41,149 nucleotides of DNA from Gemmatimonadota bacterium (lineage in GTDB: Bacteria; Gemmatimonadota; Gemmatimonadetes; Gemmatimonadales; GWC2-71-9). The position numbers and the translations under genes are program-made. Below the pieces are notes generated by a model. That model did not search any database. It was not told the DNA's origin and saw nothing but the letters and a program-made list of their open reading frames with translations. Of this stretch, positions 10,092 to 27,132 are shown piece after piece. Numbering within the stretch: position 1 is the stretch's first letter; each line of letters opens with the position of its first letter. Where the stretch lies: positions 1 through 41,149 of the forward strand of contig JACPAP010000024.1 in NCBI GenBank assembly GCA_016180765.1. Direction: 5' to 3'.

Positions 10092-10481
10092 CTACTCGCC
10101 GATGTGTTGGGCGTAGTCGGAGGCCGTCAACAGTCGGTCCAGCTCGGCGGTGTTCTTTACGCGGAGCTTGATCATCCAGCCCTCGCCATAGGGATCTTGG
10201 TTCACCAGGCTGGGGTCGCCCTCGAGGGCCTGGTTGACCTCGACGACCTCGCCCGCCACCGGGCAGAACAGCTCGGACACCGCTTTGACGGCTTCGATGG
10301 TTCCGAACACCTCCATGCGACCGACCTTGGTCTCCACCGCGGGCAGGTCCACATACACCACGTCGCCCAACTCGCCCTGCGCGTAGTCGGTGATGCCCAC
10401 CTGGACGATGCCGGCCTCGTCGGTCGGCTTCACGTATTCGTGCTCTTCGGTGTAATGGAGGTGGTCCGGGATCTTGGACAT
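10092..10481 (-). CDS. gcvH: Glycine cleavage system H protein
   Basis: 129 aa. Contains the lipoyl-lysine motif region EAVKAV and a typical N-terminus (YTEEHEYV). Confidence 0.95.
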   Translation of the reverse strand: MSKIPDHLHYTEEHEYVKPTDEAGIVQVGITDYAQGELGDVVYVDLPAVETKVGRMEVFGTIEAVKAVSELFCPVAGEVVEVNQALEGDPSLVNQDPYGEGWMIKLRVKNTAELDRLLTASDYAQHIGE

Positions 10482-13626: not shown

Positions 13627-13721
13627 ACAGACGAGCTGGTCTAGACCTTCACGGTCGGAAGGCTAGCGCGTGCGGGTCGCGATGGCAACGCCCGGGCCAG
13701 GTGCTGTAGATTCGTAGCGGT

Positions 13722-14894
13722 ATGGTGAGCCTTCCCCGCGCGGTTTCCGCCGTCACATCGCTGTCGCTCTGTGTCGCCGGCGCCCCGTCGGCGGCCCAGC
13801 AACGCCAGACCGCCCGGCAGCTCGGCGTGGTCGTGGGCGTGCTGCCCCCCGGCTCGCTCAACGCGATCACCGACGTGTCCGGCGTCCTGGTGGGCCAGGT
13901 GACCGTCCGCTCGGGCGACTCGATCAACACGGGCGTGACCGTGGTCCTGCCGCACGGTGGCAACCTGTTCCGCGACAAGGTGCCGGGCGCTGTGGTGGTG
14001 GGAAACGGGTTCGGCAAGTTGATGGGATTCACGCAGGTGCAGGAGCTGGGGGAGCTGGAGTCCCCCATCGTGCTGACCTGCACGTTATGCGTGCCGCGTG
14101 CGGCGGACGCCACGCTGACCTATCTCCTGTCGCTCCTCGGGAACGAGAGCGTCCGCTCCATCAACGTGGTGGTGGGCGAAACCAACGACGGGACGCTGAA
14201 CCACATCCGGGCTCGGCCCATCACCGAGCGGGACGTGTTACGGGCGATCGAAGAGGCCCGGCCCGGACCGGTGGAGCAGGGCAGCGTTGGGGCGGGGCGC
14301 GGCACCATAGCCTTCGGCTTCAAGGGCGGAATCGGGACCTCGAGCCGCCACCTCCCGGACCGCCTGGGGGGCTGGATCGTGGGTGTGCTGGTGCAGACCA
14401 ACTACGGCGGGATTCTCCAGATCGCCGGCGCTCCGGTCGGTATCGAGCTGGGCCGCTATTACCTCCGGGACGAGCTGGCGCCCGATGAACGCCGGGAAGG
14501 GGGAACGGGGAAAAGGGAAGGGTTGGACTCCCCGGACGGCTCCGTCATGATCGTGCTGGCGACCGACGCGCCGCTCGAGCACCGCAACCTGACGCGGTTG
14601 GCGCGGCGGGCACTCGCCGGGTTGGCGCGCACCGGCAGCTCCATGAGCAACGGCTCCGGCGATTACGTCATCGCGTTCAGTTCGGTGCCCGTCGCCCGGC
14701 TGGGTTCGATGCCCCGCATGCCCAACGACGCCATGAGTCCCCTGTTCCAGGCGGCGATCGAAGCCACGGAAGAAGCGATCTACAATTCCTTATTCATGGC
14801 CACCACCGTTGAGGGGTACCGCGGCACCGCGACGGCCCTGCCCCTGGATTCGACGCTGGCCATTCTCCAGCGCCACGGAGTGCTCCGCCAATGA
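13722..14894 (+). CDS. DmpA/P1-family aminopeptidase (peptidase S58), signal peptide
   Basis: Family-typical sequence: NAITDVSGVLVGQVT, GVTVVLPH, and the self-processing region ETNDG...GSVGAGRGT...VLATDAPL. The N-terminus is signal-like. Confidence 0.8.
   Translation: MVSLPRAVSAVTSLSLCVAGAPSAAQQRQTARQLGVVVGVLPPGSLNAITDVSGVLVGQVTVRSGDSINTGVTVVLPHGGNLFRDKVPGAVVVGNGFGKLMGFTQVQELGELESPIVLTCTLCVPRAADATLTYLLSLLGNESVRSINVVVGETNDGTLNHIRARPITERDVLRAIEEARPGPVEQGSVGAGRGTIAFGFKGGIGTSSRHLPDRLGGWIVGVLVQTNYGGILQIAGAPVGIELGRYYLRDELAPDERREGGTGKREGLDSPDGSVMIVLATDAPLEHRNLTRLARRALAGLARTGSSMSNGSGDYVIAFSSVPVARLGSMPRMPNDAMSPLFQAAIEATEEAIYNSLFMATTVEGYRGTATALPLDSTLAILQRHGVLRQ
14494..14521 (+). repeat. Heptamer block (4 x 7 bp: gggaagg gggaacg gggaaaa gggaagg) inside dmpA
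   Basis: Read directly from the sequence. It encodes REGGTGKREG in a surface-loop-like position just before DGSVMIVLATDAPL. Confidence 0.7.
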
Positions 14895-15808
14895 CGCGAC
14901 GCTGCCTCCTGGTCCGCGCCCCGCGGCTTCTGCCGCTTCTGCCGCTCCTCCTTGCCGCGCCGGTTCAGGCCCAGGGACGCCCGCTCAAGATCTACATCTC
15001 CGCCGACATGGAGGGCGTGGTGGGCGCGGTCACCGGGGACCAGCTGGGGCCCGGCGGTTTCGAGTACGAGCGGTTCCGCCAGTTCATGACCGGCGAGGTG
15101 CTGGCCGCCATCGAGGCGGCCAAAGCGGCCGGCGCCACCGAGATTCTGGTGAGCGATTCGCACGGCAACGGCGAGAACCTGTTGATCGAGCGGTTGCCTG
15201 CGGACGTCAGCGTGGTGCGCTCCTGGCCGCGGCCGCTCATGATGATGCAGGGGATCGACAGCAGCTTCAGCGCGGCACTGTTCATCGGCTACCATGCGGG
15301 CGCCGCCAATCCCCGTGGGGTCCGGGCCCACACCATCTCCAGCGCGCGGTTCGCCGACGTGCGGTTGAACGGCCGTTCCGTCACCGAAGGGGCGATCAAC
15401 GCGGCCATCGCCGGCCATTTTGGAGTGCCGGTCGTGATGATTTCGGGAGACGATGCCGCCGTGGCGGAGGTGAAGGCGCTGGTGGGCGACCTCGAGGGTG
15501 CCGTCGTCAAGTGGACTTACAGCTTCCACTCCGCGCGGACCCTGACCCCCGAGGCCTCCGTGCGGCTCATTGGGGAGAAGGTCACGGCCGCGCTCGGGCG
15601 GCTGGGGCAATTCAGGCCGTACACGCTCCCGACGCCGGTCACGCTGGACCTCCAGTTCAGGCACTACCGTCCCGCGGAGATGCTGGCGTATCTGCCCATC
15701 GTTCAGCGGACGGACGCGCACTCCATCCGCTATGTCGGCCCCGACATGCTCGCGATTTCCAAGTTCATCGAGTTCGTCACGACCTACGAGGTGGCGCTCG
15801 AGCCATGA
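14891..15808 (+). CDS. D-aminopeptidase, peptidase M55 (DppA-like), signal peptide
   Basis: KIYISADMEGVVG...VSDSHGNG is the M55 signature region. ATGA overlap with dmpA. N-terminal signal LLPLLPLLLAAPVQAQG. Confidence 0.85.
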   Translation: MTRRCLLVRAPRLLPLLPLLLAAPVQAQGRPLKIYISADMEGVVGAVTGDQLGPGGFEYERFRQFMTGEVLAAIEAAKAAGATEILVSDSHGNGENLLIERLPADVSVVRSWPRPLMMMQGIDSSFSAALFIGYHAGAANPRGVRAHTISSARFADVRLNGRSVTEGAINAAIAGHFGVPVVMISGDDAAVAEVKALVGDLEGAVVKWTYSFHSARTLTPEASVRLIGEKVTAALGRLGQFRPYTLPTPVTLDLQFRHYRPAEMLAYLPIVQRTDAHSIRYVGPDMLAISKFIEFVTTYEVALEP

Positions 15809-17067
15809 ACCGTTCGCCCAAGAGACCACCCATGACCGCCAGCGCGGGCTCGGAAGGGTATCGACTTTCCAAGAACCTCGAGTACCTGAAGCCGTCGGAG
15901 ACGGTGTCCATCAACCAGGAGACCCAACGGCGGCGGGCGGCGGGCGAGGACGTGATCGACCTGTCCGCCGGCGAGCCCGACTTCGACACGCCCAAGCTGG
16001 TGAGCGAGGCCGGCATTCGCGCGATTCAGCAGGGCAAGACCCGGTACCCGCCCAACGCGGGGATCCTGGATCTCCGGGCCGCGGTGGCGCGCCACCTGTC
16101 GTTGTTGTCCGGCGGGCGGCCGGTCAACGCGGACCATGTGGTGGTCTCCACCGGCGCCAAGCAGTCGCTGTTCAACGCCTGCATGACGTTGTTCGGCCCG
16201 GGCGACCGGGTGCTGATCCCCTCGCCGGCGTGGGTGTCGTATCCCCAGATGGTGCGGCTCGCGCGCGCCGAGCCGGTGATGGTGGCGGGCGACATCGAGT
16301 GGAGCCTCAAGGTGGACGTGGACGCGCTGAACGCGGCGTGGGACCATCGCGTCGCCGGGCTGATCCTCTGCTCACCGGTCAACCCCACGGGTGCGGTGTA
16401 CAGCCGCGCGGAAATCAAGGCGATCGCAGAGTGGACCAGGGAGAAGAACGTCTGGCTGCTTGCCGACGAGATCTACCGGCGGATCCACTACGGTTCGGGT
16501 CCGGCGCCGTCGGTGTTGGACCTGCCGGATGAGTTCCTGACCCGGGTGGTGGTCGTCTACGGCGCCAGCAAGGCCTACGCCATGACCGGCTGGCGGATCG
16601 GCGTGGCCGTCGCCCCGCTGCCGATCGCCAAGACCATGGCGGCGCTGCAAACGCACGTCACCAGTGGCGCCTGCCATCCGGCCCAGTGGGCCGCGGCCGC
16701 GGCGTTCGGCGACGAGCGGGTGGAGGCGTCCGTGGCGGAGATGGTCGAGGCGTTCCGCCAGCGCCGCGACCTGGTGGTGGGGCATTTCCGCGAGCACCTG
16801 AGCGGGGTCGAGTTCATCGAGCCACTTGGCGCGTTCTACTTCTTCTTCCGGGTGGATGGCTACTGCAACGACGAGCTCGCGACCGCGGCGGCGTTCTGCG
16901 AGCGGTTGATGGCGGAGCGAGGCGTGGCGCTGGTGCCGGGGGACGCGTTCGGCGACCCCCGCTGGGTCCGGCTATCGTACGCGGCTTCGGAGAAGGATCT
17001 CACGCGGGCGCTGGAGCGGATCACCCAGTTCGCCCGGAAGCGGGAATCGGTACGGGCCGGGCGGTAA
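15805..17067 (+). CDS. Pyridoxal-phosphate aminotransferase, class I (aspartate aminotransferase-like)
   Basis: 420 aa with a PLP-lysine region (YGASKAYAMTGWRIG). ATGA overlap with the M55 gene. Confidence 0.9.
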   Translation: MNRSPKRPPMTASAGSEGYRLSKNLEYLKPSETVSINQETQRRRAAGEDVIDLSAGEPDFDTPKLVSEAGIRAIQQGKTRYPPNAGILDLRAAVARHLSLLSGGRPVNADHVVVSTGAKQSLFNACMTLFGPGDRVLIPSPAWVSYPQMVRLARAEPVMVAGDIEWSLKVDVDALNAAWDHRVAGLILCSPVNPTGAVYSRAEIKAIAEWTREKNVWLLADEIYRRIHYGSGPAPSVLDLPDEFLTRVVVVYGASKAYAMTGWRIGVAVAPLPIAKTMAALQTHVTSGACHPAQWAAAAAFGDERVEASVAEMVEAFRQRRDLVVGHFREHLSGVEFIEPLGAFYFFFRVDGYCNDELATAAAFCERLMAERGVALVPGDAFGDPRWVRLSYAASEKDLTRALERITQFARKRESVRAGR

Positions 17068-17072
17068 TGCCG

Positions 17073-17205
17073 TGGCTCAGACGGTGAGGGCGCCGGTGGG
17101 TCCCGACGGGCGCGTCAGGGCGGCGGGCATCGCCCGAGGGGCAAGGTCCGGTGCCAGCACTGCAGCGACCGGAGGGACCCACCGGCGCCCTCGCCGTCTG
17201 AGCCA
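17073..17205 (+). repeat. Palindromic intergenic element, copy B, with 32-bp terminal inverted repeats
   Basis: Arm 17073-17104 (tggctcagacggtgagggcgccggtgggtccc) is the reverse complement of arm 17174-17205, with one T:G position. The 69-nt core is shared with copy A. It starts 6 nt after the aminotransferase stop. Confidence 0.8.
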
Positions 17206-17218
17206 CGAGCCTGGCGCC

Positions 17219-17247
17219 TTGCCCCGGTCCGGGGCGCTCGGTATTCT
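17219..17247 (+). promoter_or_regulatory. Sigma-70-like promoter for the 17281-25743 operon
   Basis: TTGCCC-N17-TATTCT, ending 33 nt upstream of the ATG at 17281. Confidence 0.35.
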
Positions 17248-17280
17248 GACCCCAACTCGTAACTTTGCTGGAATGCGTCC

Positions 17281-17793
17281 ATGGGATTCGCGGCTCGGGT
17301 CGAGCCCCTGAGCGGGAAACTGCCCACGGTCACCTTCAAGTGGGACCGGGAGACCGAGATTCTCTCGGGCCACTTCAAGGGGGCCGGCAAGGCCGAAGGG
17401 CTGACCGGTACGGTGGAGCTCGAGGGCCCCGATGGCTCGTTCGCGGTGCTGGATGTGGCGGGGGGGCGGCTCCGGGGACTCGAGGTGGTGGTGTGGCCCG
17501 AGACTCAGACGGTGCCCGGCCTCACCGCGCCGGCCGCAGCGGAACGTGGTCGGCTGATCCTTCCGGCCAGGCCGTCGCAGCCGGGGATCGCGGCGGTCGA
17601 AGTGGACACGCACATGGTGGCGGAGAAAACCCCGGACGACTCGACCATCCATCTCCGGGTCGGTCCGCCGCGCCGGGTGAAGCTGATTCAGGTGGCGGAA
17701 AACCTCGTGCTGGAGCTGGATGAGGCCAGCCAGATCGCCGGCTTCTGGTTGCTCCAAGTGCCGCCGTTCCCGCACGTCGAAGAAGGCGTCTGA
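17281..17793 (+). CDS. Hypothetical protein with two internal beta-rich half-repeats (faint DUF2283-like pattern)
   Basis: 170-aa ORF with strong GC3 bias. The halves TVTFKWDRETEILSG...AVLDVAGGRLRGLEVVVWP and STIHLRVG...LVLELDEASQIAGFWLLQVPP look related. The family assignment is only a guess. Confidence 0.55.
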   Translation: MGFAARVEPLSGKLPTVTFKWDRETEILSGHFKGAGKAEGLTGTVELEGPDGSFAVLDVAGGRLRGLEVVVWPETQTVPGLTAPAAAERGRLILPARPSQPGIAAVEVDTHMVAEKTPDDSTIHLRVGPPRRVKLIQVAENLVLELDEASQIAGFWLLQVPPFPHVEEGV

Positions 17794-17800
17794 CGCGGCG

Positions 17801-18439
17801 ATGACCGTCAACGAGCAGCTCCTCGCCTACGCCGAGCAGCTGTTCGCGCCGGAGGACGCCGCGCTCCACGAGATCCGCGCGCTGCCGGAGCGCGAAGGAC
17901 TGCCCGACATCGCCGTCTCGCCGGACGAGGGCAAGATCCTCGCGGTGCTGCTCACGGCCATCGGCGCCCGGCGCGTGCTGGAGATCGGCACGCTGGCGGG
18001 CTACAGCGGCGTGTGGATGGCTCGGGCGCTGTCCGCGGGAGGCATGCTCACGACGATCGAGGCGGACCCGAAGCACGCGGCGGCGGCACGGCGGGCGTTC
18101 GAACGAGCGGGCGTGGCGCACCGGGTTCAGCTCATCGAGGGCCGCGCGCTCGAGGTGCTGCCCACGCTCCGGCCGGGGTACGACGCGGTCTTCGTGGACG
18201 CGGACAAGGAGCCGCTGGAACAGTACTACCGGCAGGCGATGCGGCTGCTCCGGCGGGGCGGCCTGCTCTTGTGCGACAATGCCTTCTTCAACGGACGGGT
18301 GACGGACCCGCGCGACACCGCGGCCGACGTCGAGGGGGTGCGGGCGTTCAACCGGCTCGCGGCGAGCGACGCCCGGCTCGCGGCTGCCGTCATTCCGGTG
18401 CGGGACGGCCTGGTGGTCGGCGTGAAGGTGGCGGAATGA
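17801..18439 (+). CDS. Class I SAM-dependent O-methyltransferase (caffeoyl-CoA OMT-like, Methyltransf_3)
   Basis: VLEIGTLAGYSGVWMA (motif I) and VFVDADKE. The start is trimmed to the ATG at 17801. Confidence 0.85.
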   Translation: MTVNEQLLAYAEQLFAPEDAALHEIRALPEREGLPDIAVSPDEGKILAVLLTAIGARRVLEIGTLAGYSGVWMARALSAGGMLTTIEADPKHAAAARRAFERAGVAHRVQLIEGRALEVLPTLRPGYDAVFVDADKEPLEQYYRQAMRLLRRGGLLLCDNAFFNGRVTDPRDTAADVEGVRAFNRLAASDARLAAAVIPVRDGLVVGVKVAE

Positions 18440-20316
18440 AGCGGGGCGCCGGCATCGGGCGCGTGGTGGCGACGGAGGCCACGCCGGCCACGCCACACGA
18501 GTTCCGGTTTCGTGCGGCGGCCGATGAGGACGCGGTCGGCATTGGCGCGCTGGTGCGGGTAAGCGGCGACGGCGGACGGCGGGTGTATGCGGTCGTGACT
18601 GACGGACGAGCGTACGAAGCGGACGGGGAAACGGGAAACGGGAAACGGGAAACCATCCTGTGGACCGCCTCCGTGCTCCGGCAAGTCCCCCCTGAGCCGC
18701 TCCGGCCGGTGCCGATCGCGGACGTGTATCTGGCCGCGCCGGAGGACGTCGCGGTGGCGCTCCGGATGGACGCGTACTCGGCGGGGTTGCCGGTGGGGTT
18801 GTATGGGAGCGAGGCATCGCGGGCGCCGGTGCAGCTGGATCCGGATTTCCTGGTGGGGCCCGAAGCGGCGCACCTCAATGTGGGAGGGGTCTCGGGGCTG
18901 GCCACCAAGACCAGCGCTATGGTGTTCCTGCTGGCCGGCGCCTTCCAGTGCTTTCCCCGTTCGAAGGGCACCATCGCCGCGGTCTGCTTCAACGTCAAGG
19001 GCGGCGATCTGTGCTTTCTGGACCAGGCGGCGTCGCTGAGCGAGCCGGATGGGGCGATGTACCGGGCCCTGGGACTCGAACCCCGGCCGTTCGCCCGAAC
19101 GCGCTACTTCGCGCCGTTCAAGCCGGACGGCGTGAACCTCAACACCCTGCGCTCCCACGAGGAGCTCCGATCCTCGGTCCAGCCGCTGGTGTGGGGCTTG
19201 CCGGAGGTCCTGGAGTACGCCGAAGTCCTGCTCAACCGGGAGGACATCGACGCCAAGGCGGACGCCTTCATCGATTTCCTGGGAGACCGGGTGATTGGGA
19301 GGGAATTCGCCGACGACTGGGGCGGGGTGCACCGGGTGACGAGCTTCGCGGATCTGGACCGCCTGTTCCGCGCCATCTTCGACGGGCTGGAGCAGAAGGG
19401 CGGTCGGAGCGACATGTGGAGGACGCACCACGTCGCCACGATGCGCAAGGTGCGGAACCGGCTGCTCAACATCTCGGTGAGGTGCCGTGGGCTGGTGGCG
19501 GACGACGGCTCGTCCAACGATCTGCCGTTCGGCGCATTCGAGGATCGCGCGGTGTACGTGCTGGACCTTGCGGGCACCGATCAGCTGGCCCAGGATCTGG
19601 TGTTCACGCGAGTGGTCTCCAAGCTGCGGGAGCATCTGGAGCGCCGCGACCTGGGCGTGGAGCACGTCATCGTGCTGGTGGACGAGCTGAACAAGTACGC
19701 GCCGGCGGATGGCCCCGAGAGCTACGTCCGGGAGATGTTGCTGGACATCGCCGAGCGCGGGCGCTATTTGGGCCTGGTGCTGTTCGGCGCCCAGCAGTTC
19801 CGCTCCCAGGTGCACCGTCGCGTGGTCGGCAACGCCGCGACGGCGATCTTCGGCCGCAGCGACCTGGACGAGCTGGGGACGGCGGGGTATCAGGGCTTGT
19901 CGCCCGCGACCAAGATCAAGCTGGCGACGCTCCCCAAGGGGGAGTTGATGGTGCGCCACCCGCACTTCACGCAGCCCGTGTTCGTCCGGTTTCCCCGCCC
20001 GCCTGTGCTGCTGGGCGGCGAGGGGCTGGACCGGTTCCCGCCGGCCGCCGACGCGGCGTTTGACGAGGCGGTGACGCGACAGCTGGCGGCGTTGGACCGC
20101 CGGGTGGCCGCCGCCACGGTGCGCGATCTGATCGCGGACCGAGACCAGGACGATGTGCGGCGGGCTCTGCTGGCCACCCGCCGCGCCCAGCCCGACGATC
20201 CGGTGAGCTTCTTCCGGGCACGCCTGGGCCCGCGGGTGGCCCGCGAAGGGCGGGACCAAGTGGCGCCAGGCGTCCGACCTCTTTCCTCGCTGGAGGATCC
20301 GTATGCGAGCCAGTAG
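18436..20316 (+). CDS. HerA-like (HAS-barrel + FtsK/HerA-fold) ATPase with non-canonical P-loop
   Basis: 626 aa from the ATG at 18436 (ATGA overlap with the OMT gene). N-terminal HAS-barrel-like GRVVATEATPATPHEFRFRA...GALVRV...RVYAVVTD. Walker B HVIVLVDELNKYAP. HerA-like GLVLFGAQQFRSQV...NAATAIFGR. Confidence 0.75.
   Translation: MKRGAGIGRVVATEATPATPHEFRFRAAADEDAVGIGALVRVSGDGGRRVYAVVTDGRAYEADGETGNGKRETILWTASVLRQVPPEPLRPVPIADVYLAAPEDVAVALRMDAYSAGLPVGLYGSEASRAPVQLDPDFLVGPEAAHLNVGGVSGLATKTSAMVFLLAGAFQCFPRSKGTIAAVCFNVKGGDLCFLDQAASLSEPDGAMYRALGLEPRPFARTRYFAPFKPDGVNLNTLRSHEELRSSVQPLVWGLPEVLEYAEVLLNREDIDAKADAFIDFLGDRVIGREFADDWGGVHRVTSFADLDRLFRAIFDGLEQKGGRSDMWRTHHVATMRKVRNRLLNISVRCRGLVADDGSSNDLPFGAFEDRAVYVLDLAGTDQLAQDLVFTRVVSKLREHLERRDLGVEHVIVLVDELNKYAPADGPESYVREMLLDIAERGRYLGLVLFGAQQFRSQVHRRVVGNAATAIFGRSDLDELGTAGYQGLSPATKIKLATLPKGELMVRHPHFTQPVFVRFPRPPVLLGGEGLDRFPPAADAAFDEAVTRQLAALDRRVAAATVRDLIADRDQDDVRRALLATRRAQPDDPVSFFRARLGPRVAREGRDQVAPGVRPLSSLEDPYASQ
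18626..18653 (+). repeat. Heptamer block (4 perfect copies of GGGAAAC) inside the herA-like gene
   Basis: Read directly from the sequence. It encodes GETGNGKRET between HAS-barrel strands. Confidence 0.85.
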
Positions 20317-21190
20317 CGTCAGCCGCGTCCTGTATGGGGTGGTGGGGGCGGTCGTCAGCGCCGGCAGCCTCGCCGGGCAGCAACCCGTCTCGATTCAGTT
20401 CGGGGCTTCCCCCGGCGCGGCGGTGCGCACCATCACCTCGGCGCGCGGCACCATGGTGTTTCACGAAATCAACGAGGCGGGCCAACGGATCGGCGACAGC
20501 GTGATGGGCGAGATGACGGCTCTCGCCGGCGTCACCCACCGCATCCTCGAAGCCCAGGCCGGCGGCTACGTGGTCGAGGTGCGCTACGACTCCCTCAAGA
20601 CGCGGGCCCGGCTGGTGGGGCAGAACTGGAAGGAAGACGTGTGGTTCGGAGCCGCGCAGGACGCGGCGCGGGTGACGGTGGACGCGCGGCTGCGCCCGGC
20701 GGGAGGGACCGGCGGTGGCCTTCCGGCGGATCCGGTCGCGAACGGAGGCATCGCGTCCTGGCGGGGGGTCGAGCTGCCGGACCGTCCGGTGTCGCCCGGA
20801 GATACTTGGACGGTGACCACGGTGTATCGGCTGCCGGCCCAGCTGGGCCAGTTGCTGGACATCGCGATCCGCGACTCCCTCATCGCTCCCGCCACGGTCA
20901 GGCTGGACTCCGTCACGGTCCGGCCGGCAGACTCGCTGATGTACTTCACCGTGCTGCAGACGCTCCCCTCGGCGACCCTGCCGGCGGTGGATGCCGGCGA
21001 CAGCGCCACGGTGGAGCTGGTGGGCTCGCAGGCGGCCAGCCTGGTGTGGTCCACCGGATGGAACGGGTACGTCTCGGGGGCGAGTCAGGCCAGGCTGGTG
21101 GGGCGCCTGCAGAGCCGCACCGCCGCGGGGACGCCGCGGATGGCCGAGATCCACTGGACGCTATCGAGCAGGCTGCAAGTGCGGTTGTGA
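20303..21190 (+). CDS. Hypothetical 295-aa protein with a hydrophobic N-terminus, in the NurA position of the operon
   Basis: The ORF overlaps herA by 14 nt and mre11 by GTGA. N-terminus VLYGVVGAVVSAGSLAGQQ. The rest is Val/Thr-rich and beta-like. I found no recognisable motif. Confidence 0.6.
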   Translation: MRASSVSRVLYGVVGAVVSAGSLAGQQPVSIQFGASPGAAVRTITSARGTMVFHEINEAGQRIGDSVMGEMTALAGVTHRILEAQAGGYVVEVRYDSLKTRARLVGQNWKEDVWFGAAQDAARVTVDARLRPAGGTGGGLPADPVANGGIASWRGVELPDRPVSPGDTWTVTTVYRLPAQLGQLLDIAIRDSLIAPATVRLDSVTVRPADSLMYFTVLQTLPSATLPAVDAGDSATVELVGSQAASLVWSTGWNGYVSGASQARLVGRLQSRTAAGTPRMAEIHWTLSSRLQVRL

Positions 21191-22371
21191 GGATCGCGCA
21201 TCTCGCCGACGTTCACCTGGGATTTCGCCAGTATCACCGTCAGACCCCGCAGGGGATCAACCAGCGCGAGGCGGACGTGGCGCAGGCGTTCCGTCGCGCC
21301 CTGGACGACGTGATCGCCGCCCGCCCCGACCTCGTGGTCGTGGCGGGCGATCTGTTTCACTCGGTTCGCCCCGTCAACGCCGCCATCCTGGATTCCTTCA
21401 ACCAATTCCGCCGCCTCCGCGAGGGACTGCCGGAGGCGCCCATCGTGCTGATCGGCGGCAACCACGACACCCCGCGCTCGGTGGAAACCGGCACCATTCT
21501 CAAGCTGTTCGAGGCGCTGCCGGGCGTGGTGGCCGTCCCCCAGGAGCCGCGGTACCTGCGCTTCGAGCAGCTGGACCTCTCGGTGTTCTGCGTGCCGTAC
21601 GCGGCGGCGGTGAGCGCCCGGCCCCGGCTGGTCCCCAGCGGGGATGCCGGCCGCAACGTGCTGGTGGTGCACGGGCGGCTCGCCGGGCTCTTACCGGGGG
21701 ACGAGTGGTGGTACGATCACGCGGGTCCGCCCATCGAGCCCGGGGAGCTGAACCCGGAGCGCTGGGATTACGTGGCGCTGGGACACTATCACGTGGCGCA
21801 CCGGGTTCGAGAGAACGCGTGGTACGCGGGCGCCCTGGAGTACGTGAGCCCCAACCCATGGGGCGAGTTGCGTGACGAAGAGCGGGACGGGCGGTGTGGC
21901 CAGAAAGGCTGGTTGCTGGTCGAGCTGGGCGCGCGCCTGCGCGTGGAGTTCCGGCCGGTGGCATTGGCCCGCCGGGTGATCGACCTGGAACCCATCGAAG
22001 GGGCCGGGGTGCCCGCGGAGCGGCTCGACGCTCTCGTGTGCGAGCGCGTCACGGCCATCCCGGGAGGGATCGACGAGCAGGTGGTGCGGCAGCTGGTGTG
22101 GAACGTGCCGCGCTACGTGGCGCGGGACCTGGATCATGCCCGGGTCCGAGAATTCAAGGCGCGGGCATTGCATTACCACCTGGACATCCGGCGGCCCCCG
22201 CCGCGGCGCGAGGTGGGGGTCGGCGGGCCGGGGTCGCGACGCAGCTTGGCGGATATCGTCGAGGACGTGCTGTCGCGCCGGCCGCTGGAGGCACAGCTCG
22301 ATCGCCAGCGCCTCCTGGCGCTGGCGCGATCCTACCTGGAGCGGGTAGAGCGCGAGGCGCCCGAGCCCTGA
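21187..22371 (+). CDS. sbcD: Mre11/SbcD-family nuclease (calcineurin-like phosphoesterase)
   Basis: Motifs IAHLADVHLG, VVVAGDLFH, IGGNHD, VVHG and ALGHYH. GTG start at 21187. Confidence 0.85.
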   Translation: MRIAHLADVHLGFRQYHRQTPQGINQREADVAQAFRRALDDVIAARPDLVVVAGDLFHSVRPVNAAILDSFNQFRRLREGLPEAPIVLIGGNHDTPRSVETGTILKLFEALPGVVAVPQEPRYLRFEQLDLSVFCVPYAAAVSARPRLVPSGDAGRNVLVVHGRLAGLLPGDEWWYDHAGPPIEPGELNPERWDYVALGHYHVAHRVRENAWYAGALEYVSPNPWGELRDEERDGRCGQKGWLLVELGARLRVEFRPVALARRVIDLEPIEGAGVPAERLDALVCERVTAIPGGIDEQVVRQLVWNVPRYVARDLDHARVREFKARALHYHLDIRRPPPRREVGVGGPGSRRSLADIVEDVLSRRPLEAQLDRQRLLALARSYLERVEREAPEP

Positions 22372-24791
22372 TGCGGCTCCACCGCCTGAAGCTGGTCAAC
22401 TTCCGGCAGCACGTGGACAGCGATCTCACGTTCGGCCCCGGCATCACCGCGATCATCGGGCCCAACGGAGCGGGGAAGACCACCTTGCTGGAGGCCATCG
22501 CCTGGGCCCTGTACGGCGCGCCCGCGGCGCGGGGGAGCCGCGAGTTCCTGCGGTGGAACCGCGCGCCGGCGCGGGCTCCGGTGCGGGTCGAGCTGGAGTT
22601 CGGGGTCGGCGCGCACCAGTATCGCGTGGTGCGCGGGCTGTATCAGGCGGAGCTGTATCAGGACGCGGGCGATCGGCCGGTGGCGAACAGCCAGCAGGAA
22701 GTGACGGCGCGGTTGGAGCGGGTGCTGGGCATGCGCCGCGACGAGTTCTTCAACACCTATTTCACGAATCAAAAAGAGCTGGCGGTTATGGCCCGCCTGG
22801 GGCCGGCCGATCGGGCGCGCTTCTTGTCGCGGATCCTGGGGTACGAGAAGCTGCGCGAGGCGCAGGACGCGCTGCGCGCGCGGCGCTCGGAGCTCCGGGC
22901 GGAGCAGGCAGGGCTGGAACAGGGCCTGACGGACGAGGAGACGCTGCACCAGGAGCGGGTCGGCACCCAGGAGCGGCTGGACGCCGCCCGGCGGCGGGTG
23001 CGCGAGGCGGAGCGCTTGAAGGCGGCGGCCGAACGCCGGCTGGGCGCAGAGGGCCCGGCGTGGTCGCGCATGGTGAGCTTGCGCGAGTCGGTGATGTCCC
23101 TGGACGGGGAGCGGCGGCTGGCGGAGCAGCGCGTGGAGGAAGCACGGCGCGAGTTCGAACGCCTGGACCGGGAGCTGGCGCAGGCGCTCGAGGCGCAGAA
23201 GGGGCTGCGAGAGATCTCCCCCAGGCTGCAGGTGGTGGGAAGCCTGCGCCAGGAGCTGGACCGCCTGGAGCGCGAAGCCCAGGCGGCGGATCGGCGGCGG
23301 GACCTCTCGGGGCAGCTCAAAGAGGTGGCCAGTCAGATCGAGCGGGCCGAGGTGCGACTGCGCGACCTCGAGTCGGTAGACCAGCACCAGCAGCGGAGCG
23401 AGCAGGAGCTCGCCGCGGCGCACGCCGCGCTCAAGCAGGCCCAGGCCGTCGACGAGAAGGCCCGAACCGCGTGGGTGCAGGACAAGCAGGAGGCCCAGAC
23501 CAAGCTCGACCAGGCGCGGGATCAGTACAAGGAGTTGCGGGCGCACCGCCAGGGGATCCAGCAGGCGGGCCCCGACGGCACCTGCCCCACCTGCCTGCGC
23601 CCGCTGGGCGCGGAGTATGAGGCGGTGCTGGGCACGTTGGCGCGCCAACTCGAGGAGCTGGAGCTCAACGGCAAGTACTACAGCCAGCGGGTCGAGCAAT
23701 TGACCCCGGAGCCGGACGAGGTGCGTGACGCGGAGGCGCGCAGGCGGAGCGCGGCGTCGCGGGTCGAGGACCTGGTGCAGCAGGCGGCGCGGGCGCGGGA
23801 GCGGGTGCGGGATCGCGACGAAATGGCGCGGGAGTCGAGGCGACTGGGGGAGCGGCGGGCCTCGCTGGAGCGGGAGATCGCCTCGCTCCCCGATCGCTAC
23901 GATGCGGATCGCCATGAAGCGGTCCGGATCGAGCTTCGGGGGCTGGAGCCGACGATCGTCCTGGAGGCCGCGCTCCGGGTCCAGGCGGACCGCGCCGGGC
24001 GGTTGGTGGCCGAGGCGGAGGTGGCGGATCGCGAATTGACCGATCGGGAAACGCACCTCAAGCAACTGTCGGCGGCCATCGCGGATGCGGGGTTCAGCGA
24101 GGAGGCGTTCGTCGAGGCGCGCGAGCGCTACGAGGCGGCGGAGCGGGCGGTGCGGGACGTGGAACTGGAGCTGTCCACCGTGCGGGGTGACGAGCGGGCG
24201 GCCCAGCAGTTGGTCGAGGTGGCGGAGCGACGCCTGGCGGAACGAGCGGCGCGGGCGGCGCGGCTGGTGGAGCTCAAGACGGAGCTCCGGCTGCACGACG
24301 AGCTGGATCGCGCGTTTGGCGACATTCGGACCGACCTCAACGCGCAGCTGCGTCCCGAGCTGTCGGAGATCGCCTCGACGTTCCTGGCCGAGCTCACCAA
24401 CGGCCGATACCACGAGCTGGAGCTGGACGAGGAATACCAGATCCTGGTTCTGGAAGACGGCCTGGCCAAACCGGTCATCTCCGGAGGGGAGGAGGACATC
24501 GCCAATCTCGTCCTCCGGTTAGCGATCAGCCAGATGGTGGCCGAGCGGGCGGGCCAGCCCCTGAGCCTGCTTGTGCTGGACGAAGTGTTCGCCAGCTTAG
24601 ATGAGGAGCGCCGGGAGCATGTCCTGGCGCTGCTCCGGCACCTGGGGGATCGGTTCCCGCAGGTCGTGATCCTCACGCATGTCGAGGCGATGCGGGCCGG
24701 CGTGGATCGCTCGCTCCGCGTCTCGTTCGACCCCAATCGGGGTGCCGTGGTCACCGAGGAGGACGGACCGCTGCAGGATGTGGCAGCCTGA
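22371..24791 (+). CDS. sbcC: Rad50/SbcC-family SMC-like ATPase with zinc hook
   Basis: 806 aa. Walker A GPNGAGKTT, long coiled coil, CPTC hook (GTCPTCLRPLG), signature SGGEEDIANL, Walker B LLVLDEVFASLD, H-loop ILTHVE. The ATG at 22371 overlaps the mre11 TGA (TGATG). Confidence 0.9.
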   Translation: MRLHRLKLVNFRQHVDSDLTFGPGITAIIGPNGAGKTTLLEAIAWALYGAPAARGSREFLRWNRAPARAPVRVELEFGVGAHQYRVVRGLYQAELYQDAGDRPVANSQQEVTARLERVLGMRRDEFFNTYFTNQKELAVMARLGPADRARFLSRILGYEKLREAQDALRARRSELRAEQAGLEQGLTDEETLHQERVGTQERLDAARRRVREAERLKAAAERRLGAEGPAWSRMVSLRESVMSLDGERRLAEQRVEEARREFERLDRELAQALEAQKGLREISPRLQVVGSLRQELDRLEREAQAADRRRDLSGQLKEVASQIERAEVRLRDLESVDQHQQRSEQELAAAHAALKQAQAVDEKARTAWVQDKQEAQTKLDQARDQYKELRAHRQGIQQAGPDGTCPTCLRPLGAEYEAVLGTLARQLEELELNGKYYSQRVEQLTPEPDEVRDAEARRRSAASRVEDLVQQAARARERVRDRDEMARESRRLGERRASLEREIASLPDRYDADRHEAVRIELRGLEPTIVLEAALRVQADRAGRLVAEAEVADRELTDRETHLKQLSAAIADAGFSEEAFVEARERYEAAERAVRDVELELSTVRGDERAAQQLVEVAERRLAERAARAARLVELKTELRLHDELDRAFGDIRTDLNAQLRPELSEIASTFLAELTNGRYHELELDEEYQILVLEDGLAKPVISGGEEDIANLVLRLAISQMVAERAGQPLSLLVLDEVFASLDEERREHVLALLRHLGDRFPQVVILTHVEAMRAGVDRSLRVSFDPNRGAVVTEEDGPLQDVAA

Positions 24792-25743
24792 CCGCGTAGT
24801 CCAGGGCCCCAGGCAACTGGTTGAGTCGGAGATCGGACCGCTCAACCGGCTGTTTGCGGACGCGTTCACGGACCGGTATCGCAAGGACGGGCTGGTGGGC
24901 GTGCGGGTCCCGCAGCTGAACCCGGACGTCTGGCGCTACGCGCTGCGTGATGCGGGCGACGGGGCCATGGCCTGGACCGACGAGCGCGGCGACCTGGTGG
25001 CGTTCAACGTGGCCCACCACAGCGGGGTGGAAGGCTGGATGGGGCCACTGGCGGTGCGTCCGGACCGGCAGGGGCTGGGCCTGGGCAAGGCGATCATCCG
25101 CTCGGCGGTGGAGTGGCTGGTGGAGCAGCGGGTGAGGGTCATCGGGCTCGAGACCATGCCGCGGACCGTCGAGAACATCGGGTTCTACAGCAAGCTGGGG
25201 TTCGTCCCCGGCCATCTCACCATCACGCTCACCGGGGACGTGCAGCGGAGCGTGCGGGGGCGGTTCACCCGGCTGAGCGAGCTGTCCCAGCGCGAGCGGA
25301 CGACGTGGTTGCCCCGGCTGCGGGAGGCGTTGGAGGGCGGGTTGCCCGGATACGATTTCCTGCGCGAGCTGGAGCTTACCTCTCAGCTGAGCCTGGGCGA
25401 CACCGTGGTGATCGGCTCCGGCAGCGAGGTGACGGCGTTCGCGCTGTACCACTCGGTGCCGCTGGCCGAGGCACGGCCCGGCGACGAGCTGCGGGTGCTC
25501 AAGCTGTACGCGGACTCGCTCGAGACGTTCGACAAACTGATCGTGGCGCTGGAGTCCTGCGCGGCCAAGCACAAGCTCCGTCGCGTGGCGGTGCGGTGCC
25601 AGACGGGATACCACCGGGCGTACCGCTATTTGATCGAGCGAGGCTACCGGGCTCGGTGGACGGACCTGAGGATGTGGTTGGACGGGTACGGGGAGACGGT
25701 GCTGGGTGGTGGCGGCGTGCTGTTTTCGAACTGGGAAATCTGA
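24778..25743 (+). CDS. GNAT-family N-acetyltransferase (two-lobed)
   Basis: MGPLAVRPDRQGLGLGKAIIRSAVEWL is the acetyl-CoA binding motif A. The ATG at 24778 overlaps the rad50 3' end by 14 nt. Confidence 0.8.
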   Translation: MWQPDRVVQGPRQLVESEIGPLNRLFADAFTDRYRKDGLVGVRVPQLNPDVWRYALRDAGDGAMAWTDERGDLVAFNVAHHSGVEGWMGPLAVRPDRQGLGLGKAIIRSAVEWLVEQRVRVIGLETMPRTVENIGFYSKLGFVPGHLTITLTGDVQRSVRGRFTRLSELSQRERTTWLPRLREALEGGLPGYDFLRELELTSQLSLGDTVVIGSGSEVTAFALYHSVPLAEARPGDELRVLKLYADSLETFDKLIVALESCAAKHKLRRVAVRCQTGYHRAYRYLIERGYRARWTDLRMWLDGYGETVLGGGGVLFSNWEI

Positions 25744-25750
25744 GAAAGCC

Positions 25751-25806
25751 GTTTTCCGTTACCCGTTATCCGTAACTGCCTTTACGGACAACGGAAAGCG
25801 GACAAC
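25751..25806. terminator. Inverted pair of heptamer blocks forming a hairpin between convergent genes
   Basis: 25751-25778 is gttttcc gttaccc gttatcc gtaactg (reverse-orientation units). 25779-25806 is cctttac ggacaac ggaaagc ggacaac (forward units). tccgtaa/ttacgga and ccgtt/aacgg pair around a 6-nt loop. It lies between the GNAT stop (25743) and the small ORF stop (25809). Confidence 0.6.
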
Positions 25807-25808
25807 GC

Positions 25809-25973
25809 TCACCGGGGGCGCGCCTTCTCGTCAGCCCTCACAATGCCCACCGCGATCAAGACCACGCCAAGGGCCAAGGGACCGTGCACCCATCCCGACG
25901 GGATCGCCAGGGCGAAGGCCAGCACCGCCCAGAGGGCCAGGGACACCAGTGCGAGCAGGAAGTAGCGGTTCAC
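25809..25973 (-). CDS. Small (54 aa) two-TM membrane protein, not in the ORF track
   Basis: GTG at 25973, 4 nt after the M29-like stop. Translation: VNRYFLLALVSLALWAVLAFALAIPSGWVHGPLALGVVLIAVGIVRADEKARPR. Strong GC3 bias. Confidence 0.45.
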   Translation of the reverse strand: MNRYFLLALVSLALWAVLAFALAIPSGWVHGPLALGVVLIAVGIVRADEKARPR

Positions 25974-25977
25974 CGGT

Positions 25978-27132
25978 TCACGGTGTGATGAGGTGGCCGT
26001 CTTTCACCCAGACCTCGGTCCCCACGGTTACCGTGGCGTCGGCGAAGAAGTTCCAGCGGACGTACCCGCCCCTCACCGTGCCGCCCAGTTCCGTGTTATC
26101 GCCCAGGGACAGCCGGACCACGCCCGCGCCGTAGCCATAATAAGGAATCCACGGCGGATCGTCGCCGGGCACGGCGAGCAGCGGGTTGAACCCCAGGGCG
26201 AACTCGCGGAAGGCGCGCCCCGGGCCGTCCGCGGGTCCCAACTCGGCGGCGACGGCGTCGCGTCCGGTGGGTGCCTGGAAACCGGTCACGCGGCCACGGT
26301 CGAAGCTCAGGACCAGTCCCTCGACGCGGGTGCCGCCCCACCAACTGGGCGGGAAGACGATGGTACCGCGGACACTCCGCTCCAGGGGTGCCACCCGAAT
26401 GGCTCCGGCCGGCAGCTCGACCTCCCGATCCACCAGGTTGCGTGCTTGGGCGGCGCGGGCCGCGGACGCGTCACCATCCATGCGCGTCACCGGCCGGTTG
26501 CGGATCTCGAACCTGAGGTCGGTGCCGGCGGGCGTGGTGACGCGCACCACCTGGCCCCGCATCGCCTGCTCGAAGCGACGCTGGACCTCCGCCAGCCATT
26601 GGTAGTCGGTTTCCACGATCGCCCGCTGGTACACCTGGCTGATGCGGTCCGTAAGCCGCAGCGGACGGCCTTCGAGATCGTAGGCCCCGGCCCAATGGAA
26701 GTGGATGGTCCGGCCCCGGCCGGTCCGCAGCACGTCCTGCATGGCGGCGTAGGCGGTGTCCGAGGTGCTCGCGCCGGGCATCATCACCGCGAGGCCCACG
26801 CCCCCCAGGTACTCGGCCAGCTCGGCGCGCGAGGCGCCGCGCGAGCCCCGGGTGAAGGGGGTGTGCCAGTCCCCCGGCTCACCGGGGCCGGTGGCATAGA
26901 CACCCATGTCCTGACCGCCGGCGCGTTGGGTTTCCTGACGGATGAAGGCGGTGAGCGTATCAAACACACCCGGCCGGCCCACGAAGAGGACCTTCTCGCC
27001 CGGCTTCAAGGCCATGCGCGCCACGACGGCGCGGGCGATGGCGGCCCGATCCAGTCCGCTGGTTTGGGCGGTCAGGTTCCCGGCCAGGTGGAGGGCTGCC
27101 ACGAGGGCGACGAGCAACGCGGCGCGCGGCAT
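25978..27132 (-). CDS. M29 (aminopeptidase T / NicX-like) fold protein, signal peptide
   Basis: Collinear with M29 members (VRVTTPAGTDLRFEI...AGAIRVAPLERSVRGTIVF...FREFALGFNP). I could not confirm the metal ligands by eye. N-terminal signal ALVAALHLAGNLTAQ. Confidence 0.5.
   Translation of the reverse strand: MPRAALLVALVAALHLAGNLTAQTSGLDRAAIARAVVARMALKPGEKVLFVGRPGVFDTLTAFIRQETQRAGGQDMGVYATGPGEPGDWHTPFTRGSRGASRAELAEYLGGVGLAVMMPGASTSDTAYAAMQDVLRTGRGRTIHFHWAGAYDLEGRPLRLTDRISQVYQRAIVETDYQWLAEVQRRFEQAMRGQVVRVTTPAGTDLRFEIRNRPVTRMDGDASAARAAQARNLVDREVELPAGAIRVAPLERSVRGTIVFPPSWWGGTRVEGLVLSFDRGRVTGFQAPTGRDAVAAELGPADGPGRAFREFALGFNPLLAVPGDDPPWIPYYGYGAGVVRLSLGDNTELGGTVRGGYVRWNFFADATVTVGTEVWVKDGHLITP

Follow-up and report, generated by a model that had tools for sequence, protein, structure and literature searches.

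What does a HerA-type ATPase do beside Mre11 and Rad50 in a bacterium when no NurA nuclease is encoded next to it? The question is raised by a cluster of seven genes in a 41,149-nt stretch of a Gemmatimonadota genome (GenBank assembly GCA_016180765.1, contig JACPAP010000024.1, positions 1 to 41,149), which we analysed as a whole and call the window. The cluster occupies 17281-25743 of the forward strand and encodes, in order, a small all-beta protein (g1), an O-methyltransferase (OMT), HerA, a 295-residue protein (g4), Mre11, Rad50 and a GNAT protein (Table 1). Thermophilic archaea and some members of Deinococcus-Thermus have linked nurA-herA-mre11-rad50 sets (PMC5448004), and the role of NurA-HerA in bacteria is still disputed (PMC9960219). 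An earlier note on this DNA had left a choice between a bacterial variant of the archaeal resection machine and a defence module. Our analysis indicates that the former is the right frame: the seven genes are likely to represent a cluster for the processing of DNA ends that soil Gemmatimonadales inherit vertically. It is homologous to the nurA-herA-mre11-rad50 set, but has lost nurA in the clade of the window.

The identities proposed earlier for HerA, Mre11 and Rad50, including their motifs and the CPTC hook, agree with our structure-database and profile matches. By these comparisons gene 3 is a bacterial-type HerA of the FtsK-HerA superfamily, with a predicted role as a ring translocase. The product is identical to a protein encoded in a Gemmatimonadetes metagenome-assembled genome. 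Its best match was the HerA of D. radiodurans (PDB 7f6d, E = 1.4e-38), aligned over query residues 6-221 and 350-524 and thus across both the HAS-barrel and the ATPase domains; Pfam gave no match. The unusual Walker A of 7f6d (GxSGxATKTS) also occurs in the window protein. The ratio of nonsynonymous to synonymous substitution rates (dN/dS), computed between the window and two clade members, was 0.15 for HerA and 0.09-0.24 over the seven genes, which shows purifying selection on all of them. A variable loop of the HAS domain contains a perfect heptamer array, a possible slippage hotspot; the same loop carries a degenerate heptamer version in a close relative (locus L002) and a CGGACAT-like array of ~4 copies in another (L085, ~10225-10255).

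Genes 5 and 6 are, on sequence criteria, Mre11 and Rad50 of the archaeal/Thermotoga type, with a zinc hook. All five calcineurin-like phosphoesterase motifs were found in gene 5, whose best matches were the Mre11 proteins of P. furiosus (E = 1.6e-14), M. jannaschii and T. maritima. Gene 6 has the make-up of Rad50/SbcC, with a split ABC ATPase head, a long coiled coil and a CxxC hook, and matched the archaeal-type Rad50 model PRK03918 at E = 1.4e-56 (192 bits), as against 7e-27 for the SbcC model TIGR00618. With E. coli-type SbcCD the pair has in common the Mre11/Rad50 superfamily, the motifs and the zinc hook; however, the matches to SbcCD were much weaker than those to the archaeal type, and no E. 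coli SbcCD chain appeared among the PDB matches. SbcCD normally stands alone.

We then compared the cluster with related loci. In a scan of GTDB with one genome per species, HerA relatives were encoded in at least 591 stretches, and the best 80 of these all came from Gemmatimonadota/Gemmatimonadales. The layout comparison covered 83 loci of ±10 kb each, mapped with the seven window proteins and two profiles built in this analysis; 78 loci could be assessed for a NurA-like gene upstream of herA, 64 for g1 and OMT, and 56 for g4 and the downstream genes. The gene order, whose conservation had been named as a point on which the proposal could fail, is kept in relatives. The usual order is aminotransferase, g1, [OMT], [NurA-like], HerA, [g4, zero to two copies], Mre11, Rad50, GNAT, where brackets mark genes not always present. 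On the downstream side of herA, 53 of the 56 loci have Mre11, Rad50 and GNAT, the GNAT gene following rad50 in 53 of 56. Upstream of herA, g1 is found in 55 of 64 and OMT in 28 of 64.

Upstream of herA, 69 of the 78 loci carry a NurA-like gene, which is its immediate neighbour in 62. Its product (~325 residues) carries the motifs FLDGIQR, WLVVDG and GVIKSH, which are hallmarks of NurA, and the matches to known NurA are weak but specific: E = 0.02 to T. maritima NurA (TM1739, PDB 1zup), and a Pfam NurA match in one of 33 family members (E = 0.0023). All four genes of the archaeal-type set are thus linked in most relatives, and three of the four in the window, where nurA is missing. A six-frame profile search of the 41-kb window found no NurA-like open reading frame (ORF), nor did profile searches find one at loci L001-L003, L062, L068, L070, L073 and L081. 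In a neighbour-joining tree of HerA the NurA-less loci fall in at least three or four separate clades. The sisters of the window clade (L015, L009 and L022) contain NurA, and clade members down to 74% HerA identity share an identical NurA-less layout. Judged from the layouts and the tree, nurA has been lost from the cluster in this clade.

It had been suggested that the 295-residue g4 fills the slot of NurA. This idea does not survive the comparison: in relatives NurA is encoded upstream of herA and coexists with g4, both genes being present in many loci. NurA is a cytoplasmic nuclease with an RNase H-like alpha/beta fold, and such a nuclease was rejected for g4 on four counts, namely an all-beta model, a signal peptide, the lack of any NurA profile or sequence match, and an hhalign probability of 0.15% against the NurA-like family. 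The model (predicted local distance difference test score, pLDDT, 79) consists of an N-terminal helix followed by long antiparallel strands, and its PDB neighbours are beta-barrels and lipoproteins only (template-modelling, TM, score ≤ 0.32), with NurA not among them. An N-terminal signal sequence, basic and then hydrophobic, is present in 41 of 42 family members, with lipoboxes in remote ones, and g4 is accordingly predicted to be exported. Because it would be exported, g4 most likely has no connection with DNA. Its family comprises 319 representatives in a profile search of 1.84 billion proteins; six of 42 representatives match Pfam DUF6263 (PF19777; best E = 1.8e-6), the window g4 gave no match to it, and a literature search for DUF6263 found nothing. 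Between herA and mre11, g4 is absent from 28 of the 56 loci, single in 17 and duplicated in tandem in 11. The tandem duplication marks one large subclade (loci L004-L008, L012, L013, L016, L018, L019, L021, L024 and L025); another subclade is without g4, and there herA lies 3-60 nt from mre11.

If HerA no longer has NurA at hand, the domain that contacts NurA may have changed. We compared HAS and ATPase identities for each of 56 taxa, which are not phylogenetically independent, against a common outgroup of 30 NurA-containing loci. The HAS/ATPase identity ratio was 0.71-0.75 in the window clade, the lowest of the 56 taxa, compared with 0.87-0.93 in its NurA-containing sisters. NurA docks on the HAS barrel in archaeal and Deinococcus complexes (PMC9960219, PMC5448004). 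The fast divergence of this domain is therefore compatible with NurA having truly been lost or replaced as a partner in this clade, a pattern that we regard as no more than suggestive.

As a working mechanism, Mre11-Rad50 would bind, tether and nick DNA ends, and a HerA hexamer would translocate duplex DNA, feeding a nuclease. In the window clade HerA would serve Mre11 itself or, alternatively, a NurA-type nuclease whose gene lies elsewhere. Archaeal HerA is known to bind Mre11 (PMC2288612). A further-reaching version holds that NurA is truly gone from the clade and that HerA has been re-wired to Mre11-Rad50 as a NurA-independent, three-component resection machine, with the companion proteins regulating the nuclease or the ATPase. 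In that case the CdiI-like g1 would bind the nuclease, as an inhibitor or adaptor, and the RimI-like GNAT, whose gene overlaps rad50, would regulate by acetylation. We consider this version unlikely.

Several observations weigh against an end-processing cluster that has shed nurA. One locus (L087; GCA_900175145.1, FWWM01000028.1, 5125-13495) keeps g1, an amidohydrolase, OMT, g4, Mre11, Rad50 and GNAT with neither herA nor nurA, so that g4-mre11-rad50-GNAT stands there without herA. Unrelated genes also occur inside the cluster in relatives (among L071-L075, L062, L006/L018/L087 and L035): a GlpD-like FAD oxidoreductase separates nurA from herA, a Mur ligase separates herA from mre11, g1 is followed by an Amidohydro_3 gene, and OMT is accompanied or replaced by a Methyltransf_11 gene. 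Because of these insertions, and because synteny spans unrelated genes, adjacency is weak evidence of shared function, and it may reflect slow genome rearrangement instead. The co-location of OMT, g1, g4 and GNAT, from which a common function had been argued, accordingly carries less weight than was assumed. The acceleration of the HAS domain is seen in the window clade alone and not in the other NurA-less lineages, and the relative-rate comparison involves taxa that share ancestry. In D. radiodurans the activity of HerA depends on NurA (PMC9960219, PMC5448004), and a NurA-less HerA therefore needs another partner. Finally, when nurA or herA is deleted in bacteria, the effects on repair are only modest or else paradoxical (PMC9960219), and 'repair' is therefore not firmly established for the bacterial proteins.

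The most serious alternative is that the window encodes part of an ordinary four-component machine, with nurA merely relocated elsewhere in the genome and still supplying the partner of HerA. We lean against it, yet several observations favour it. HerA is under purifying selection with a HAS domain that is still recognisable, NurA-less loci occur in several separate clades of which most show no HAS acceleration, and there is a precedent in T. thermophilus HB27, where a truncated nurA lies beside hepA and a second NurA homologue elsewhere is a possible substitute (PMC5448004). What tells against relocation is that the NurA docking face of the window clade diverges fastest relative to the ATPase domain among the 56 taxa, and that the 41 kb at hand hold no NurA-like ORF. 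A quite different role, in envelope-linked DNA export or uptake, would make HerA a pump coupled to the exported g4, by analogy with the HerA/FtsK-family ATPases in Thermus transjugation. That g4 comes next after herA, in many cases with an overlap, and does so even in members at 28% identity (L086), would suit such a coupling, as would the transjugation defect of Thermus hepA and nurA-like mutants (PMC5448004). However, HerA lacks a membrane segment, genes for secretion or pili are absent from the neighbourhood, g4 is missing from half of the assessable loci, where herA abuts mre11, and g4 is retained at the locus that lacks herA. We therefore regard a DNA pump as very unlikely.

Defence against phages or plasmids, of the Lamassu or MADS type, was the other frame offered by the earlier note, and a combination of HerA-like and SMC/Rad50-like ATPases with a nuclease and a methyltransferase does recall such systems. 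Matches were indeed obtained with PADLOC, for Rad50 to LmuB (8.9e-36) and mad3 (1.1e-32), for OMT to mad2 (5e-19), and for HerA to a defence HerA model (4e-6) and mad8 (1.8e-5). These matches are at the level of generic domains only, and the repair families score higher: Rad50 reaches 192 bits with PRK03918 against 122 bits with LmuB, and HerA matches the D. radiodurans protein as described above. The OMT is of the small-molecule/RNA O-methyltransferase type rather than a DNA methyltransferase, and the cluster contains no effector or sensor gene. Moreover, the arrangement is order-wide, in at least 591 genome stretches, and sits in a fixed housekeeping context. Synteny extends well beyond the cluster, to GcvP, GcvH, CoaE, TK, HU, DbpA, S58 and aminotransferase, and the region is therefore a stable chromosomal one rather than an island. 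G+C is ~70% throughout the window, the same in the cluster as in its flanks, the gene annotation of the window lists no mobile-element genes, and a PHROGs search returned nothing relevant. A mobile defence island is unlikely, and a defence function of the cluster altogether highly improbable.

An end-processing cluster without nurA has close but incomplete counterparts among known systems. The D. radiodurans NurA-HerA pair (DR_0836/DR_0837; PDB 7f6d, 7wrw, 7wrx) and Thermus HepA share with the window protein the homology of HAS barrel and ATPase domain, the Walker A variant and the DE Walker B, and nurA directly precedes herA in Deinococcus and Thermus as in most Gemmatimonadales relatives (PMC5448004). 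In contrast to the Deinococcus pair, the window clade has no adjacent NurA, its herA is clustered with mre11-rad50, and its HAS domain is diverging fast. In D. radiodurans itself sbcCD is located elsewhere, away from herA. The herA-mre11-rad50-nurA operon found in thermophilic archaea (Constantinesco 2004, cited in PMC9960219 and PMC5448004) resembles the window in having herA co-directional and tightly linked with mre11-rad50, and the Mre11 and Rad50 of the window are closest to archaeal and Thermotoga proteins. It differs in that the window HerA belongs to the bacterial type, whose identity to archaeal HerA is <20% (PMC9960219). In addition, nurA is missing from the window, four extra genes are present, the relatives have the order nurA-herA-mre11-rad50, and a metagenome-assembled genome is all that is known of the bacterial host. 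Linkage of HerA with Mre11 and Rad50 in Bacteria is already on record in Oceanithermus profundus, whose nurA-hepA-sbcD-sbcC likewise has a bacterial HerA followed by Mre11 and Rad50 homologues (PMC5448004). Oceanithermus, however, belongs to another phylum and has NurA, and no companions like g1, OMT, g4 or GNAT have been reported there.

These comparisons bear on how the linkage of herA/nurA with mre11-rad50 is seen, which so far has been mainly as a thermophilic-archaeal trait. The linked set is carried by Gemmatimonadales, an order known mostly from environmental metagenomes; our literature search found no paper on NurA or HerA of Gemmatimonadota. The lineages without nurA, the window among them, those without g4 and the one without herA are natural 'knock-outs', and they offer a comparative handle on which partners HerA needs, including the case of HerA with Mre11-Rad50 and no NurA. 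Three conserved, uncharacterised companions are flagged as well: g1, GNAT and g4.

For the companions g1, OMT, g4 and GNAT a role in repair is unproven. The g1 family is confined to Gemmatimonadota. Its model is confident (pLDDT 87, predicted TM score 0.84) and gave a single strong match among PDB structures, the CdiI(EC869) immunity protein of E. coli EC869 (7vmc chain C; E = 5.7e-8, TM 0.68/0.65), on which it superposes over the whole chain length; g1 is thus predicted to adopt a CdiI(EC869)-like beta-sandwich fold. However, g1 has no toxin gene nearby, and its identity to CdiI(EC869) is only 14%. The 7vmc structure, at 3.4 Å, was itself solved using a search model from AlphaFold (PMC9071432). 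A g1 profile found nothing among PDB sequences. DUF2283 (PF10049) was matched weakly by 21 of 33 g1 relatives; in the three that we checked individually the score was below the gathering score and covered the C-terminal half only, and the window g1 had no Pfam match. The description of g1 as a tandem-repeat protein is not borne out, BLASTP between its two halves giving no alignment and hence no detectable sequence repeat. The O-methyltransferase, by contrast, was correctly named. For gene 7, described as a two-lobed GNAT, the label holds for the N-terminal half, where Acetyltransf_1 scores 46.9 bits against a cut-off of 20.7. The C-terminal half is not recognisably GNAT: a gene 7 profile found GNAT matches in the PDB over residues 13-151 only and none for this equally conserved half.

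The layout of the seven same-strand ORFs was confirmed in coordinates, junctions and coding G+C, with third-position G+C of 0.85-0.93 and position-specific G+C as in coding sequence. The seven genes are probably co-transcribed from the promoter-like site upstream of g1. A generic sigma-70 scan of 16900-26100 called no promoter, this site included, although the element is present as described before: CTTGCC-N17-TAT(T/C)CTGACC is conserved in four clade members (the window, L002, L085 and L084), with the spacer and surrounding bases varying. Conserved hexamers with a varying spacer can reasonably be read as the phylogenetic footprint of a promoter. In more distant relatives g1 starts only ~25 nt after the aminotransferase gene, and the 5' boundary of the operon may therefore differ between lineages.

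Table 1. Features of the cluster and its surroundings (positions in the window)
Feature	Position	Strand	Basis or remark
S58 peptidase gene	13710-14894	+	upstream of cluster
M55 peptidase gene	14891-15808	+	upstream of cluster
Aminotransferase gene	ends 17067	+	upstream of cluster
Inverted-repeat insertion, ~130 bp	17054-17224		core arms 17069-17104 and 17174-17209; fold -155.8 kcal/mol, z = -8.9
Promoter-like site TTGCCC-N17-TATTCT	17219-17247	+	sequence and conservation in clade
g1, 170-residue all-beta protein	17281-17793	+	predicted structure, family search
g1/OMT junction	17794-17800		7-nt gap
OMT, class I S-adenosylmethionine-dependent O-methyltransferase	17801-18439	+	Methyltransf_3, E = 4.4e-45, 153.9 bits against cut-off of 22
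OMT/herA junction	18436-18439		ATGA
HerA ATPase/translocase (predicted), HAS barrel and RecA-like ATPase domain	18436-20316	+	PDB 7f6d match
Perfect (GGGAAAC)x4 heptamer array	18626-18653	+	variable loop of HerA HAS domain
HerA Walker A, GGVSGLATKTS	18883-18915	+	residues 150-160; invariant across relatives
HerA Walker B, VLVDELNKYAP	19672-19704	+	residues 413-423; invariant across relatives; DE type
herA/g4 junction	20303-20316		14-nt overlap
g4, 295-residue all-beta protein, predicted exported	20303-21190	+	signal peptide, residues ~1-25
g4/mre11 junction	21187-21190		GTGA
Mre11/SbcD nuclease	21187-22371	+	five phosphoesterase motifs, PDB matches
Mre11 motif DVH	21202-21222	+	
Mre11 motif GDLFH	21346-21360	+	
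Mre11 motif GNHD	21454-21468	+	
Mre11 motif H (VVHG)	21664-21675	+	
Mre11 motif GHYH	21781-21792	+	
mre11/rad50 junction	22369-22373		TGATG
Rad50/SbcC ATPase, 806 residues	22371-24791	+	motifs and profile matches
Rad50 Walker A	22458-22484	+	
Rad50 zinc hook CPTC	23583-23594	+	residues 405-408; central
Rad50 signature SGGE	24480-24491	+	
Rad50 Walker B	24567-24590	+	
Rad50 H-loop	24669-24680	+	
rad50/GNAT junction	24778-24791		14-nt overlap
GNAT protein, 321 residues	24778-25743	+	RimI-like N-terminal domain
GNAT acetyl-CoA motif RPDRQGLGLG	25057-25086	+	residues 94-103; consensus Q/RxxGxG/A
Imperfect hairpin of heptamer repeats (CCGTTAC type)	25751-25806		-36.5 kcal/mol, z = -3.4; between convergent genes
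Strongly hydrophobic 54-residue ORF	25809-25973	-	convergent; downstream of M29 peptidase gene

Between the aminotransferase gene and g1 lies an inverted-repeat insertion whose 36-bp near-perfect hairpin is directly 3' of the aminotransferase stop codon (17067). The insertion is missing in the close relative L002 and present in the window alone among the loci compared; it probably terminates or insulates the upstream transcription unit. A dispersed element resembling a miniature inverted-repeat transposable element was considered for it and rejected, since neither the window nor the loci contain a second copy and a 25-mer search of JGI metagenomes gave no exact match. At the other end of the cluster, the heptamer hairpin reported after gene 7 was recovered, and its position between two convergent genes makes it a candidate terminator for both directions. 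L002 has at the same junction (~17489-17540) a non-homologous heptamer hairpin of the GGGGTAA type (-49.9 kcal/mol, z = -5.7). No Rfam family and no tRNA gene was detected anywhere in the window.

The rest of the window is housekeeping in character, with genes for an aldo-keto reductase, GTP cyclohydrolase I, an acyl-CoA synthetase, NAD-dependent DNA ligase, aminopeptidase P and a Glycos_transf_3 protein. Downstream, the cluster faces the convergent 54-residue ORF and the M29 peptidase gene, and a gene of 54-55 residues is called at the matching position in L002, L084, L085 and L087.

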